Of a stretch of 64,000 nucleotides of DNA, positions 27,200 to 48,533 are shown piece after piece. This stretch comes from a virus. Location of the stretch: the IMG/VR virus record IMGVR_UViG_3300037420_000510, positions 325 through 64,324 of that record; one strand, written 5' to 3'. Each line of letters opens with the position of its first letter. Within the stretch, counting starts at the first letter, position 1. A program made the translations under genes and the position numbers. Below the pieces are notes generated by a model, which worked only from the letters and a program-made list of their open reading frames with translations, did not search any database and was not told the origin of the DNA.

Positions 27200-27738
27200 C
27201 CTCGATGAACCTCTTCCGAGAACTGAAGCAGCGCGCCAGCCTGGCCTTTCGCATCTTGTGCGACTTCGACAGCAACCTCGAAGCCTACGCGGAGCGCGAA
27301 CTGCGCGCCGCCGGCTACTGCGATGACGAGATGAAGGGCCACACGGCGCAGGGCGTTCTGGACATGGTGCGCGTGTATTCGCTGCAGGGCCAGCGCGGCA
27401 CGGATGCATCGACCGCTTTGCAACTGTTCGACACGCTCGCGCGCTTCACGCCGATAGTCCCACTGACTGGCGCCGACAGCGAATGGGACGATGTCACCGA
27501 ACTCTCTGGCCGCCCGCTGTGGCTGAACAAGCGCTGCTCGCACGTGTTCAAGGGGGGTGACGGGCAGGCATACGACAGCGAGGCCATCATCTTTGAAAAG
27601 CCGAACGGCGAGCGCCTCACCAGCCGCCAGTTCATCACGTTCCCGTACACGCCGCGCTCGGTCGTCGTGCGCCTTCCGGTCGACGCGACTGAATCGGACA
27701 AGCGGCGGGCCGCGCAGATCGCATGGAGCGCAGCATGA
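27196..27738 (+). CDS. Conserved hypothetical phage protein
   Basis: PLTGADSEW...NKRCSHVFK...ITFPYTP. Confidence 0.7.
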   Translation: MTSMNLFRELKQRASLAFRILCDFDSNLEAYAERELRAAGYCDDEMKGHTAQGVLDMVRVYSLQGQRGTDASTALQLFDTLARFTPIVPLTGADSEWDDVTELSGRPLWLNKRCSHVFKGGDGQAYDSEAIIFEKPNGERLTSRQFITFPYTPRSVVVRLPVDATESDKRRAAQIAWSAA

Positions 27739-28082
27739 GCAAACAATTCAAGGCTGGCGATGTCGCTGTCCTACGCGTTGACGTGGCAAACACTCCATCG
27801 CAGGAGCGCGGCCTGCTCGCCTACGACAGGACGGACGTGAGGGTCATCGGCGGACTGGCATGGCGAGAGTCGTTGACTGGCCCGCTTTACTGCTACGTGG
27901 TGGCAGCCATAGATGGGGCTGTGTTTTTCGCTGAGCCGCACGAACTGTTTCCCAAGCGTCCACCGCGCCGCGCCATCGACGAGGTCGTCCGATGGGAGTC
28001 AGTCGGATGGATGCCGATGGACGTGAAGCTGGATCGGGCCATCAGGCAATCGTTGCGAGATCAGGTGAGGGAGCGGGCATGA
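27735..28082 (+). CDS. Hypothetical protein
   Basis: 4-nt overlaps. Confidence 0.6.
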   Translation: MSKQFKAGDVAVLRVDVANTPSQERGLLAYDRTDVRVIGGLAWRESLTGPLYCYVVAAIDGAVFFAEPHELFPKRPPRRAIDEVVRWESVGWMPMDVKLDRAIRQSLRDQVRERA

Positions 28083-28504
28083 GCACCAAGAGCCCAGGCA
28101 TCACCAGCCGCAACGTCATCGTCCCAATCGCTCGACTGGCCGGAAAGCAAAGAGTGGGGCAGGAAGACGCCGACGAACTTGCGCTGCCGACCTTGATCTA
28201 CCTCGACGCAGCCAAGCGCGGCGCCTGCCCGCACGCCGGCTACAACTCGTTGGCTACCACCTTGCTTGCCGCGGCCAGCATCGCGGTGCAGACGCAGTCC
28301 AGGCGCTTCTACGACATCGTGCACAGCGCCTACAACCTCCTCGTGAAGGCCGGGCTGCGTGAAACGAAGCTGCTCGACCTGACTACGACGGAGTATCAGG
28401 CGATCCGCTCTGCGCTGGCGTGGTACGTGCGATCGCTGCCGATGATCGAGGTGGGTGTGCTGAGTAAGGCGTATGCCCGCGCACAAGCAATGATGGCTCA
28501 ATGA
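28079..28504 (+). CDS. Hypothetical phage protein
   Basis: 4-nt overlap, helical composition. Confidence 0.65.
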   Translation: MSTKSPGITSRNVIVPIARLAGKQRVGQEDADELALPTLIYLDAAKRGACPHAGYNSLATTLLAAASIAVQTQSRRFYDIVHSAYNLLVKAGLRETKLLDLTTTEYQAIRSALAWYVRSLPMIEVGVLSKAYARAQAMMAQ

Positions 28505-28514
28505 GGGCTGGACG

Positions 28515-28892
28515 ATGACACCAACCGATTCCAGAAGTGCATACCGGATCGAACGGATCCTTGACATGCTGATCGAGCAAGACCTCGACCAATTGCAGAT
28601 CACTCAGCGCCTATGCATGAGCGATCCACGCAACGTCGGGCGATACCTGGACTACCTCAAGTCGGAGCAGGAAATCCATATCTGCGACTGGCGCCCGCCT
28701 AAATCGAATGGACATCGCTGGGCCGTTTATCGCATCGGCAAGGGGCGCAACAAGCGGAAGCCGAAGCCAAAGACTCAAACCGAGGTGATGCGAGACTACT
28801 GGCGCAAAAAGGGTCGGCCGAGTTGCCAGCAGCCTCGATACGTCGCTAGCCCGTTCGAAGTCCTGTTCGGTTTGCAGGAGGCCAGAGCATGA
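28515..28892 (+). CDS. Winged-HTH-like protein
   Basis: NVGRYLDYLK...IHICDW...AVYRIG. Confidence 0.65.
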   Translation: MTPTDSRSAYRIERILDMLIEQDLDQLQITQRLCMSDPRNVGRYLDYLKSEQEIHICDWRPPKSNGHRWAVYRIGKGRNKRKPKPKTQTEVMRDYWRKKGRPSCQQPRYVASPFEVLFGLQEARA

Positions 28893-29116
28893 GCCTGTAC
28901 GGGTGCAACAACAAACCCCGCCCGGTGGCCGGCGCGCCGCTACAAGTGCAAGACGGCTATTTCGGGACATACGACCCGGCGCACGCCGCCACGGTTCGCC
29001 TTGCGCGCTGGATCATCGCTCCGTACGCGATGTCGACCGAGTGCCAGTACACCAAGCAGCACGCCAGCGATCCGCAGTGCTCGGGGTGTGTGCATCGCAT
29101 GAAGGAGGCGGCGTGA
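28889..29116 (+). CDS. Hypothetical Cys-containing protein
   Basis: YGCNNKPRP...CQY...CSGC. Confidence 0.6.
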   Translation: MSLYGCNNKPRPVAGAPLQVQDGYFGTYDPAHAATVRLARWIIAPYAMSTECQYTKQHASDPQCSGCVHRMKEAA

Positions 29117-29844
29117 CGGCCTACTACAACGAGATCGACGAGTACGCGGCCGCATGGCTGCGCAATCTGATCGCCGCTGGTCACATCGCGCCGGGGGAGG
29201 TCGACACAAGGAGTATTGAGGATGTACACCCCGCCGACCTGCAGGACTTCACCCAGTGCCACTTCTTCGCCGGCATCGGTGGATGGCCGCTCGCGCTTCG
29301 GCTCGCTGGATGGCCAGATGGTCGACTTGTTTGGACCGGTTCCTGCCCTTGCCAACCTTTCAGCTCGGCAGGCAAGGGAGTTGGGTTTGCTGACGAGCGG
29401 CACCTCTGGCCGGCATTCCACCACCTCATCAGCGAGCGTAAGCCTACAACGGTCCTTGGGGAGCAAGTTGCAAGCCCGGATGGGCTCGTCTGGCTCGACC
29501 AAGTTCAAGCTGACTTGGAAGCATCGGGCTACGCCATCGGGGCGGCTGATCTGTGCGCTGCGGGCGTCGGGGCGGATCACATCCGACAACGCCTTTACTG
29601 GGTTGCCCACTCCAAGCGGAACAAGCAATCACGGGAAGAACCACGTAGCCGGCCGCTTGGACGAATGGGGCGGGTCGAGCAACCCATTCCGTGGGACCGA
29701 GATTGGCAAAGTGCACTCGCCGGGTTTCGAGCTATGGGTGATGGGATTCCCCGCTGCGTGGAGGCAACTGATGCCGCCCGCAATGCGATCGTCCCGCAAG
29801 TCGCCCAGGTCTTCATCGAATGTGTAATGGAGTGCCAACCATGA
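29113..29844 (+). CDS. C5 cytosine methyltransferase, alpha polypeptide (motifs I-VIII and X)
   Basis: FFAGIGG, GSCPCQPFS, GEQV, HIRQRLYW, NAIVPQVA; GTG start after GGAGG. Confidence 0.85.
   Translation: MTAYYNEIDEYAAAWLRNLIAAGHIAPGEVDTRSIEDVHPADLQDFTQCHFFAGIGGWPLALRLAGWPDGRLVWTGSCPCQPFSSAGKGVGFADERHLWPAFHHLISERKPTTVLGEQVASPDGLVWLDQVQADLEASGYAIGAADLCAAGVGADHIRQRLYWVAHSKRNKQSREEPRSRPLGRMGRVEQPIPWDRDWQSALAGFRAMGDGIPRCVEATDAARNAIVPQVAQVFIECVMECQP
29318..29827 (+). CDS. Nested alternative-frame beta polypeptide carrying motif IX
   Basis: Frame open from 29216 to 29827, wholly inside the MTase gene; MVDLFGPVPALANLS...ELWVMGFPAAW. Confidence 0.7.
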   Translation: MVDLFGPVPALANLSARQARELGLLTSGTSGRHSTTSSASVSLQRSLGSKLQARMGSSGSTKFKLTWKHRATPSGRLICALRASGRITSDNAFTGLPTPSGTSNHGKNHVAGRLDEWGGSSNPFRGTEIGKVHSPGFELWVMGFPAAWRQLMPPAMRSSRKSPRSSSNV

Positions 29845-29888: not shown

Positions 29889-30416
29889 ATGTCTCAACTC
29901 ATAACTCAGGCGCGGCTCCACGAGCTGCTGAACTATGACCCACTTACTGGCGAGCTTCGATGGAAGAAGGTGCGTAGAAAGAGGCAAATCGGAACTGTAG
30001 CCGGAGCCATCACGGTTAATGGGTATCGCATGATTGCCCTGGATGGACGGCAGTACTTGGGTCATCGCCTTGCCTGGCTCTACGTCTACGGCACATGGCC
30101 GAAAGAAATGATCGACCACATCAATCGGGACAAGACCGACAACAGAATCGAGAACCTGCGCGAGTGCACGGCAAAGCAAAACATTGTGAATCGGGTGTTT
30201 AAGAATCGATCCGGGTTACGCGGAACGTACTGGAATCGAGAGGTGCGCAAGTGGGTGGCAAATATCAGCGTCGATTATAAGACGGTCATCATCGGATACT
30301 ACGAAACGGCGGAAGAGGCTCATGCAGCATACCTTGATGCCGCGCGTCGCTTACACGGCGAATTCATTCCGCCAGAGCTTCTCGCGGGAACCTCACTGTC
30401 GAAGGCCGCACCATGA
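29889..30416 (+). CDS. HNH endonuclease with AP2-like C-terminus
   Basis: GHRLAW...IDHINRDKTDNRIENLR. Confidence 0.9.
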   Translation: MSQLITQARLHELLNYDPLTGELRWKKVRRKRQIGTVAGAITVNGYRMIALDGRQYLGHRLAWLYVYGTWPKEMIDHINRDKTDNRIENLRECTAKQNIVNRVFKNRSGLRGTYWNREVRKWVANISVDYKTVIIGYYETAEEAHAAYLDAARRLHGEFIPPELLAGTSLSKAAP

Positions 30417-30661
30417 CTCGAGAATCTTTGCTAGGCCATATTTGCGCTCTCTGCAACGAGTACTCGGTCAAACAGGCCGCCCCGGAGTCCGCCGCCATCG
30501 GCATGGGCCGCTGCCTCGCGCGCCACGATCACGGCCACCTATCCGTGCACGTGGGGTGGGATTGCGAAACGTGCGTGAGCTTCCGTCTCGATCGGGCAAA
30601 TCTGGCAAAGCGCCGGCAGTACGTCGAGACGCAGCGGCAGAAGCAGGAGGGCGGACAATGA
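30413..30661 (+). CDS. Hypothetical Cys-rich protein
   Basis: CALC...GMGRC...CETC. Confidence 0.6.
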   Translation: MTRESLLGHICALCNEYSVKQAAPESAAIGMGRCLARHDHGHLSVHVGWDCETCVSFRLDRANLAKRRQYVETQRQKQEGGQ

Positions 30662-31143
30662 CGATTCTTGCTCTGGACCCCGGCCCAACGCAGACTGGCT
30701 GGGTTTTCTACGACGGTGCGATCGTCTGTGAATCTGGGGTAGCCACTAATGCCGCGATGCTTGATCTGATCCAGATGTGCACGGCTGATCGACTTTGCAT
30801 CGAAATGATCGCCTCGTACGGCATGGCCGTCGGACGCGAAGTGTTCGAAACCTGCGTCTGGATCGGACGATTCCAGCAGGCGTGGCACTCGCCAGAAGCC
30901 GTCGAACTGGTCTATCGCAAGGACGTGAAGCTGCACCTTTGCGGCACGACGAAAGCCAAGGATTCCAACATCCGCCAAGCTCTGCTCGACCTGTTCCCGC
31001 GCTCAGGAGGCGGCAAGACGCCGCAGATCGGCACGAAATCGCAACCGGGCCCGCTATACGGCGTGTCCAGCCACGCATGGCCGGCGCTCGGCGTCGCAAT
31101 CACAGCAGCCGCCAAGCTGCGCACACTGAAGGAGACAACATGA
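30658..31143 (+). CDS. RuvC-like Holliday junction resolvase
   Basis: ILALDPG...CIEMIASYGMAVG...AKDSNIRQAL. Confidence 0.8.
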   Translation: MTILALDPGPTQTGWVFYDGAIVCESGVATNAAMLDLIQMCTADRLCIEMIASYGMAVGREVFETCVWIGRFQQAWHSPEAVELVYRKDVKLHLCGTTKAKDSNIRQALLDLFPRSGGGKTPQIGTKSQPGPLYGVSSHAWPALGVAITAAAKLRTLKETT

Positions 31144-47999: not shown

Positions 48000-48533
48000 T
48001 TATCTGATCCCTAGTAATTCGTCCAAATTTGCGAGTTGATCATGGTGAAGCAGCAGCACTCTAGTGCTGGCGGCGAGTTCGCGGGCCGCGTACGTGTACG
48101 GCGCCGTGCTGACGACGACAGCCATGTCGGCGCCATAGTGCAGGCGTCCGGCGACAACCTCCTGCACAGCTCGGTTCCCGACCGGATGCGTGTACATCTT
48201 GCATTGGATGGCGACTTTCGTTCCCCGCAGGGCTGCGATCACATCGACGCCCTGATCTCGCCTCGCTGTCTTATGTGCCTGCCAGCCGGCGTCGCGTAGT
48301 AGCAGTGCGCAATAGGCCTCGTACGCCAGCGGGGATAGGTGCGACACATCGGAGATGCGTAATTGTTGCTCGGCCTCCCGGTATTTCCGAACTCCGACGA
48401 TGACGACGACCGGGCAAAAGAAAGCCATGAACACCGCATACCAGAACGGTAGGCGCGACAGATACCACCCGAACGCATAAAGCAGTAGGGCGAGCAAAAA
48501 CAGCTTGAGCAGGTCGGCGAGACGTTCTTGCAT
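48000..48533 (-). CDS. Membrane-anchored Mrr-like restriction endonuclease
   Basis: Two N-terminal TM segments; YE...DQGVDVIA...AIQCK...AVQEV. Confidence 0.8.
   Translation of the reverse strand: MQERLADLLKLFLLALLLYAFGWYLSRLPFWYAVFMAFFCPVVVIVGVRKYREAEQQLRISDVSHLSPLAYEAYCALLLRDAGWQAHKTARRDQGVDVIAALRGTKVAIQCKMYTHPVGNRAVQEVVAGRLHYGADMAVVVSTAPYTYAARELAASTRVLLLHHDQLANLDELLGIR

Follow-up and report, generated by a model that had tools for sequence, protein, structure and literature searches.

How could a phage cytosine methyltransferase select and modify DNA when neither a recognition domain nor one of the canonical motifs can be found in its reading frame? The question is raised by a gene in IMG/VR virus record IMGVR_UViG_3300037420_000510, from which a stretch of 64,000 nucleotides (positions 325 to 64,324 of the record; hereafter the window) was analysed, amounting to nearly the entire 64.9-kb record, which CheckV rates complete. 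The main frame of this gene (alpha) encodes a putative catalytic subunit of a C5 cytosine methyltransferase, and a second frame (beta) is nested inside it in the +1 register. An earlier note on this DNA had proposed a solitary phage C5 methyltransferase of the dual-coded M.EcoHK31I type, a proposal that is supported by conservation of the second frame among relatives. Most likely, the locus gives an orphan phage C5 methyltransferase that is a heterodimer, its overprinted chain contributing docking, recognition and motif IX.

The catalytic chain and the frame nested within it

The start of alpha overlaps the stop codon of the preceding open reading frame (ORF) by 4 nucleotides (nt). Motifs I, IV, VI, VIII and X can be read in its sequence without motif IX (coordinates in Table 1), as the earlier note had stated, and the protein matches Pfam family PF00145 (52.7 bits against a cut-off of 22, E 5.8e-14) over a span from motif IV to motif VIII, as well as phrog_363 of the PHROGs collection at 4e-73. 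A profile built from 63 homologues of alpha matches M.HhaI at 6.6e-24, aligning motif IV with the PCQ of M.HhaI and motif VIII with its QKRER region. The AlphaFold model of alpha has a predicted local distance difference test score (pLDDT) of 81, and its top Foldseek matches are M.HhaI and M.HaeIII (2z6q, 1dct), DNMT1 and DNMT2, with probability 1.00 and E values down to 3e-8. Neither motif IX nor a recognition domain was found in the alpha frame, whether by sequence motifs or in the model; motifs VIII and X are spaced approximately 55 residues apart, and for residues 170-191 and 209-223 the pLDDT stays under 50. As no structured segment fills this interval, alpha has no apparent way to read the sequence of DNA. 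The low-confidence part of the model coincides with the segment in which, as described below, selection acts chiefly on beta.

Motif X of alpha reads ARNAIVP rather than GNAIVP, which the earlier note had taken as a warning about activity. All 43 close proteins of the subgroup share the arginine (R223), the R-N pair is kept by approximately 50 viral genes at a greater distance that have a short beta (as RNAVVP, RNGQVP and similar), and relatives with a long beta carry GNAI. Since RNAIVP is found in every one of the 43 close proteins, the sequences suggest a variant of motif X rather than a defect, and the warning does not hold.

The N-terminus of alpha (29113-29283, residues 1-57) seems to be permuted, with a conserved 36-residue segment placed 5' of motif I. 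This segment contains YYNEID..AA.WL and G.VD.RSI.DV, which are similar to motifs II and III, and the alignment with the M.HhaI profile leaves a gap of approximately 35 residues in alpha after motif I, at the position of motifs II and III of M.HhaI. In the model, a strand (residues 2-6), a helix (10-21) and another strand (28-31) precede the motif I strand (46-51).

The second frame was said to stay open for over 600 nt, and it measures 654 nt from stop to stop; the program-made list gives the ORF as 29216-29827, entirely inside alpha, with an in-frame TTG at 29216 as an alternative start. Beta extends over 83% of the length of alpha and is a protein of approximately 200 amino acids, not a small motif IX peptide. 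Its start signals, AAGGAG and ATG, are encoded within the conserved alpha residues R-S-I-E-D-V. The motif IX-like stretch occupies the bases that the earlier note had read as AMGDGIP in the main frame, where RAMGDGIPRCV is indeed encoded; the note was right about the presence of the motif, but not in placing it at the end of the ORF, for 21 codons follow. Among 121 homologues of beta, F169 and E170 are invariant and W172, M174, G175, P177 and W180 are conserved in at least 90%, and this conserved FE.W.MG.P..W is positioned directly 5' of alpha motif X on the DNA. The most conserved part of beta comprises residues 130-180, a core that probably holds a recognition segment besides the motif IX-like helix. 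Beta matches phrog_1008 at 9.6e-17, and its product therefore belongs to an already catalogued phage protein family; being a short form, the beta of the window covers no more of the 329-position profile than positions 10-149. In the ESM Atlas, the clusters closest to beta are unnamed viral hypothetical proteins.

Selection on both frames among relatives

The wide family set was assembled from 108 loci with alpha homologues, on viral and bacterial contigs, and three annotated phages, and was reduced to 96 distinct complete genes. The earlier note had named a beta frame broken in close homologues as an outcome that would tell against its proposal; the frame is unbroken in 96 of 96, its open part taking up 61-100% of alpha (on average 91%), compared with 49% of alpha in synonymous-codon shuffles and approximately 20% for the +2 frame. 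It is open also in relatives of 54-59% G+C, among them Salmonella phage epsilon15, in which a 338-amino acid beta lies inside a 389-amino acid alpha.

Synonymous sites were analysed in 88 of these genes, with less than 85% identity. Over codons 1-81, alpha shows almost unrestricted choice among synonymous codons (0.72-0.84 of pooled usage, as an entropy ratio). Over codons 82-97, 105-157 and 195-220 hardly any choice is left: F83, for example, is TTC in 88 of 88 genes, L130 is CTT in 85 of 85, A150 is GCG in 86 of 86, and P200 is CCA in 80 of 80. This freeze of synonymous sites in the wide family coincides with the conserved parts of beta.

A second set, the subgroup to which the window belongs, was obtained by searching with the 121-sequence beta alignment, which returned 70 viral loci and, from these, 50 distinct genes. 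The most variable codon position in these genes is the third position of alpha at codons 37-168; at codons 169-216 it is the first position of alpha, which is the third position of beta (entropy of the alpha third position, 0.27-0.85); and from codon 217 on, it is again the third position of alpha. Within codons 169-216, pairs of genes have an identity of 0.71 in beta and 0.48 in alpha, where shuffles give 0.27. The comparison of substitutions in both frames that the earlier note had called for clearly favours beta in the same segment: the four differences between the window and one relative (L113) all alter alpha and leave beta unchanged, and of the 22 differences from another (L114), 18 do so and four are silent in alpha. 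The regional identity of the 120 best beta matches to the window was set aside as biased, these sequences having been chosen by their similarity to beta.

The start of beta is marked in the relatives as well. At the position that corresponds to 29222, 79 of the 96 genes have an ATG, and AGGAG or GGAG is found 5' of that position in 69 of the 96. In the alpha R33 column the arginine codon is AGG in 45 of 88 genes, and D37 is encoded by GAT in 74 of 86, whereas GAC is favoured at most other aspartate columns. In the 50 subgroup genes, the +1 frame remains open 5' of the switch point for a median of 145 codons, compared with 49 expected, and in 49 of them the open stretch 5' of the conserved core reaches 60 codons or more. 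By these computational measures both frames are under purifying selection, and the start of beta is conserved.

Six relatives (L009, L010, L019, L096, L101 and L103) have a +1 frame that is open from alpha codon 1 and lacks the usual internal ATG. In these, beta may have another start, for example upstream of that of alpha or beside it.

A two-chain enzyme weighed against other explanations

The most likely explanation, as stated above, is that an orphan DNA cytosine-5 methyltransferase has its two subunits encoded on one strand, by genes that overlap almost fully. Alpha would be the Rossmann-fold catalytic core, with a short, poorly modelled linker where the recognition domain usually stands. 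Translation of beta would begin at ATG 29222, by means of the ribosome-binding site embedded in alpha codons 33-34, and would continue in the +1 frame to 29827. According to the model of the complex, the N-terminal half of beta, predicted to be a helix and a beta-hairpin, may dock onto alpha, and the C-terminal 50 residues would add the parts that alpha is missing, namely a probable DNA-recognition segment, through which beta would read the target sequence, and the motif IX-like helix; both chains would then be needed for activity. Methylation by the heterodimer would fall on phage DNA and, in lysogens, on host DNA also. Protection from host restriction is the general role of orphan phage methyltransferases, and by that usual role the likeliest purpose here would be to shield the phage from restriction by its host.

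Association of the two chains is supported, though not proven, by modelling. The complex of alpha and beta reached an interaction prediction score from aligned errors (ipSAE) of 0.89 (0.86, 0.89 and 0.89 in three runs), whereas the best of three controls reached 0.01; among solved complexes, 58 of 80 met that mark, and among mismatched pairs two of 110, counts that apply only approximately because the authors' own alignments were supplied. The runs share at least 80% of their contacts, with a partner pLDDT of 66. In the model, beta residues 164-189, which include the motif IX-like stretch, contact the alpha helix at residues 11-24 and the motif X helix at residues 225-241; a beta hairpin at approximately 95-117 pairs with the alpha strand at 141-148; and a beta helix at 69-88 rests on the C-terminal helix of alpha.

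Several results weigh against a two-chain enzyme. In the window alone, the openness of the +1 frame is not significant, 24% of synonymous-codon shuffles having one that is equal or longer; as openness is significant across relatives and not in the window, the case rests on the relatives. The N-terminal half of beta is weakly constrained in the subgroup, where identity in the +1 frame at alpha codons 81-165 is 0.27 against 0.19 in shuffled sequences, and the +2 control at the same codons stands at 0.25 against 0.195; strong constraint on this half is seen only in the wider family. The +2 frame is only a partly independent control of conservation, because frozen third positions of alpha lift identity in both shifted frames, and it is the stop codons that separate +1 from +2. 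No Pfam match was obtained with the short beta or with seven long-form relatives; a search of PDB sequences with the 121-sequence beta profile returned only chance-level matches to LptG (E 0.35 or worse); and the model of beta alone (pLDDT 60), for which Foldseek returned nothing from the PDB at E ≤0.001, is uninformative. Since no profile or fold match in Pfam, PDB or Foldseek joins the FE.W.MG.P..W of beta to known motif IX, the labels motif IX and recognition domain rest on motif resemblance, position and the model of the complex. The score of the complex is the model's own confidence, derived from author-made alignments of two chains that share their DNA. No expression, proteomic or methylation data were found for this phage or any member of the family.

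That beta is untranslated, its openness and conservation arising from nucleic-acid constraints such as RNA structure, codon bias or G+C content, would agree with the chance-level openness in the window, and with the scarcity of +1 stops in G+C-rich genes (a mean of 2.0 in synonymous shuffles of the alpha of the window). It would not account for a run of 48 codons whose periodicity follows the beta frame, together with conservation of beta exceeding that of alpha, which is a signature of protein coding, nor for a frame that is open in relatives of lower G+C content such as epsilon15, for the conserved start codon and ribosome-binding site, or for the variable number of WPTP-type repeats within a frame that stays intact; the probability left to this explanation is almost negligible. 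Beta might instead be a genuine protein that binds alpha but takes no part in catalysis or recognition, such as a regulator, an inhibitor or a protein of unrelated function, with alpha (with or without a host factor) as the enzyme. Beta has no detectable homology to any methyltransferase domain, and rare fusions join it to amino-methyltransferase domains (PF05869 in P0241 and PF01555 in P0453) and not to C5 methyltransferase domains, which would fit such a role. Set against these points are the lack in alpha of any structured segment that could read DNA, the position of the W.MG.P..W helix next to alpha motif X on the DNA and, in the model, at the interface with both the motif X helix and the N-terminal helix of alpha, and the occurrence of alpha and beta together in all 96 wide-family genes and all 50 subgroup genes; a non-catalytic beta of this kind is unlikely.

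The pattern of selection, passing from alpha to beta and back to alpha, reproduces the canonical order of motifs, and a single-chain product of frameshifting must therefore be considered. Two programmed frameshifts (0, +1, 0) would join alpha residues 1-168, beta residues 131-180 and alpha residues 217-243 into one polypeptide in which motif VIII, the target recognition domain, motif IX and motif X follow one another; the selected frame switches at these very points, and one metagenomic protein (P0087) runs from the motif IX region of beta into motif X of alpha in a single frame. However, two efficient shifts would be required within one gene, and there is no conserved slippery site at either boundary, where the conservation of nucleotides follows the codon pattern only. 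Frameshifting requires neither the long openness of the +1 frame upstream nor the conserved ATG and ribosome-binding site; the freeze of alpha synonymous sites in the wider family sets in at codon 82, far 5' of motif VIII; and in the representative clusters listed, gene callers give beta as a stand-alone ORF, for the most part beginning at the same methionine. A single frameshifted polypeptide is judged very improbable. One candidate slippery heptamer, GGGTTTC at alpha nt 609, was rejected: it lies inside the beta-selected segment, the residues that it encodes vary among relatives, and a shift there would skip motif IX.

Genomic setting, known systems and spread

The window contains no evident type II restriction partner around the locus, and the four small ORFs upstream of alpha (27723-29116) match no PHROG family. 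Genes for putative nucleases and a resolvase are listed in Table 1; if the Mrr_cat protein cuts modified DNA, its target would need to be compatible with methylation by alpha and beta.

Table 1. Positions in the window of the alpha and beta frames, their motifs and start signals, and neighbouring genes.
Feature	Position	Strand	Details
Alpha, putative C5 cytosine methyltransferase catalytic subunit	29113-29844	+	GTG start; 243 amino acids; 63% G+C
Alpha ribosome-binding site, GAAGGAGG	29101-29108	+	read from sequence; 4 nt 5' of GTG 29113
Alpha motif I, FAGIGG, S-adenosylmethionine-binding loop	29266-29283	+	F52 and G54 invariant, G56 at least 90% (63 sequences)
Alpha motif IV, PCQPFS, catalytic cysteine C80	29347-29364	+	P79, C80, Q81 and S84 invariant (63 sequences)
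Alpha motif VI, GEQV	29458-29469	+	E117 and V119 invariant (63 sequences); Q in place of the N of ENV
Alpha motif VIII, IRQRLYWVA	29581-29607	+	R160 invariant, R158 at least 90% (63 sequences)
Alpha motif X variant, RNAIVP	29779-29796	+	N224 and A225 invariant (63 sequences)
Beta, putative docking, recognition and motif IX subunit	29222-29827	+	ATG start; 201 amino acids; +1 relative to alpha
Beta ribosome-binding site, AAGGAG	29208-29213	+	8 nt 5' of ATG 29222; inside alpha codons R33-S34 (AGG AGT)
Beta motif IX-like helix, FELWVMGFPAAW	29726-29761	+	
Beta-selected segment	29617-29760	+	alpha codons 169-216, beta residues approximately 132-180; poorly modelled linker in alpha
HNH endonuclease	29889-30416	+	phrog_99, 7e-69; directly downstream
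Holliday-junction resolvase	30658-31143	+	phrog_1770, 2.9e-19; downstream
Mrr_cat nuclease-domain protein	48003-48533	-	177 amino acids; PF04471, 3.3e-22

The only published precedent found is M.EcoHK31I of E. coli HK31 (recognition sequence YGGCCR; Lee, Kam and Shaw 1995), a C5 methyltransferase of two polypeptides. Its beta chain, the source of motif IX, is written wholly in another frame of the alpha gene, and activity needs the association of both chains (PMC2836561, PMC3404938). When the start codons of beta were taken out by silent changes, methylation in vivo was lost (PMC2836561); the alpha chain also carries a predicted recognition domain (PMC3404938). The locus in the window is a variant of this arrangement and not a new kind. 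As in M.EcoHK31I, beta lies entirely inside alpha in an alternative frame, and here that layout is kept in the 96 and 50 related genes. Judged against the published description of M.EcoHK31I, however, all that alpha has at this place is a linker of approximately 55 amino acids, poorly modelled and evolving as the shadow of beta, and the conserved core is in beta, so that the labour is divided otherwise between the two chains; moreover, beta is much larger here, the enzyme is an orphan of a phage with no restriction partner nearby, and motif X reads RNA rather than GNA.

M.AquI (CYCGRG; Karreman and de Waard 1990) is another natural C5 methyltransferase of two subunits, split in the variable region, the smaller of which holds motifs IX and X (PMC3404938). 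The locus in the window resembles M.AquI in that recognition and catalysis would be shared between two chains, but differs in having motif X on alpha and in the almost complete overlap of the genes. The catalytic fold and motifs of alpha are like those of the monomeric M.HhaI and M.HaeIII; unlike these single chains, which have the recognition domain and motif IX in frame, alpha has no recognition domain, and its sequence similar to motifs II and III comes before motif I. A two-subunit methyltransferase of Stx phages (PMC10810198) was considered and found to be unrelated, being MT-A70/Dam-like, with a separate upstream gene. The full-text literature on overlapping genes and phage cytosine methyltransferases yielded no description of the present phage family.

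The two-frame layout is retained in thousands of phages, of which annotation usually gives one frame. Among 1.84 billion representative sequences, the beta profile matches 11,962 clusters (50% identity) at E ≤1e-3 and 3,939 at E ≤1e-30; all 1343 homologues of near beta length are unnamed, and among the beta matches listed there is no name beyond hypothetical protein and no Pfam domain. PHROGs describes both phrog_363 (alpha) and phrog_1008 (beta) as DNA methyltransferase, keeping the two separate without remark on their shared locus. The expectation that gene callers would miss beta is borne out for the most part in GenBank phage records, most of which annotate alpha alone (one record of a Xanthomonas phage has both), and in RefSeq; it fails for metagenomic gene calls, which hold beta in the 11,962 clusters. 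A prophage of E. coli ECCTRSRTH03 (L183:559-1761, NZ_CP041110.1) has an intact alpha of 400 amino acids with an intact nested beta of 334 amino acids, yet RefSeq presents alpha as two "incomplete" pseudogene fragments, and beta is absent from the annotation. A gene for a methyltransferase of the MT-A70 family is located directly 5' of alpha in this prophage. A DNA search with the epsilon15 gene found a relative in 68 of 5426 complete E. coli genomes; a nucleotide search of the region around the locus in the window against phage records found no match.

In the long-form relatives epsilon15 (L002:1305-2474) and PhiXhv-5 (L003:1504-2523), low-complexity repeats of GLAD type in the alpha linker are the frame-shifted shadow of GWPTP repeats in beta, the number of which differs between phages. 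None of 148 long beta hits contains PF00145, and two of them bear amino-methyltransferase domains; in P0241 (PF05869, Dam-like) and P0453 (PF01555), an amino-methyltransferase domain is followed in frame by beta. Another protein, P0318, which joins the N-terminal part of alpha to the C-terminal part of beta at a run of five glycines, was discounted as a probable assembly frameshift.

A more comprehensive reading of the family is offered tentatively, and as a whole is given a little less than an even chance of being correct. It holds that these loci may constitute the largest family of long same-strand overlaps in prokaryotic viruses; that a change of frame around the recognition domain and motif IX divided what had been a canonical single-chain C5 methyltransferase; that internal initiation in the +1 frame rescued it, the upstream part of that frame, over motifs IV to VIII, becoming a new docking domain; and that recognition thereby came to reside in a separate, fully overprinted subunit that recombination cannot part from its catalytic partner.

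If both chains are made and needed, annotation of this family is wrong at scale: a listed DNA cytosine methyltransferase would be unable to work alone, its partner having been missed, or an intact gene would have been labelled a pseudogene. The overlap would be unusually long and deeply conserved for two genes on the same strand (600 nt here and approximately 1000 nt in relatives), and, with the codon phase revealing which frame prevails in each region, it would offer a natural system for the study of two proteins that share one sequence. Specificity would be carried on a separable subunit with variable WPTP-type repeats, which could explain the diversification of targets. Split, targetable methyltransferases have already been built from M.EcoHK31I (PMC2836561), and the separable specificity subunit of the phage enzymes could serve the same purpose.

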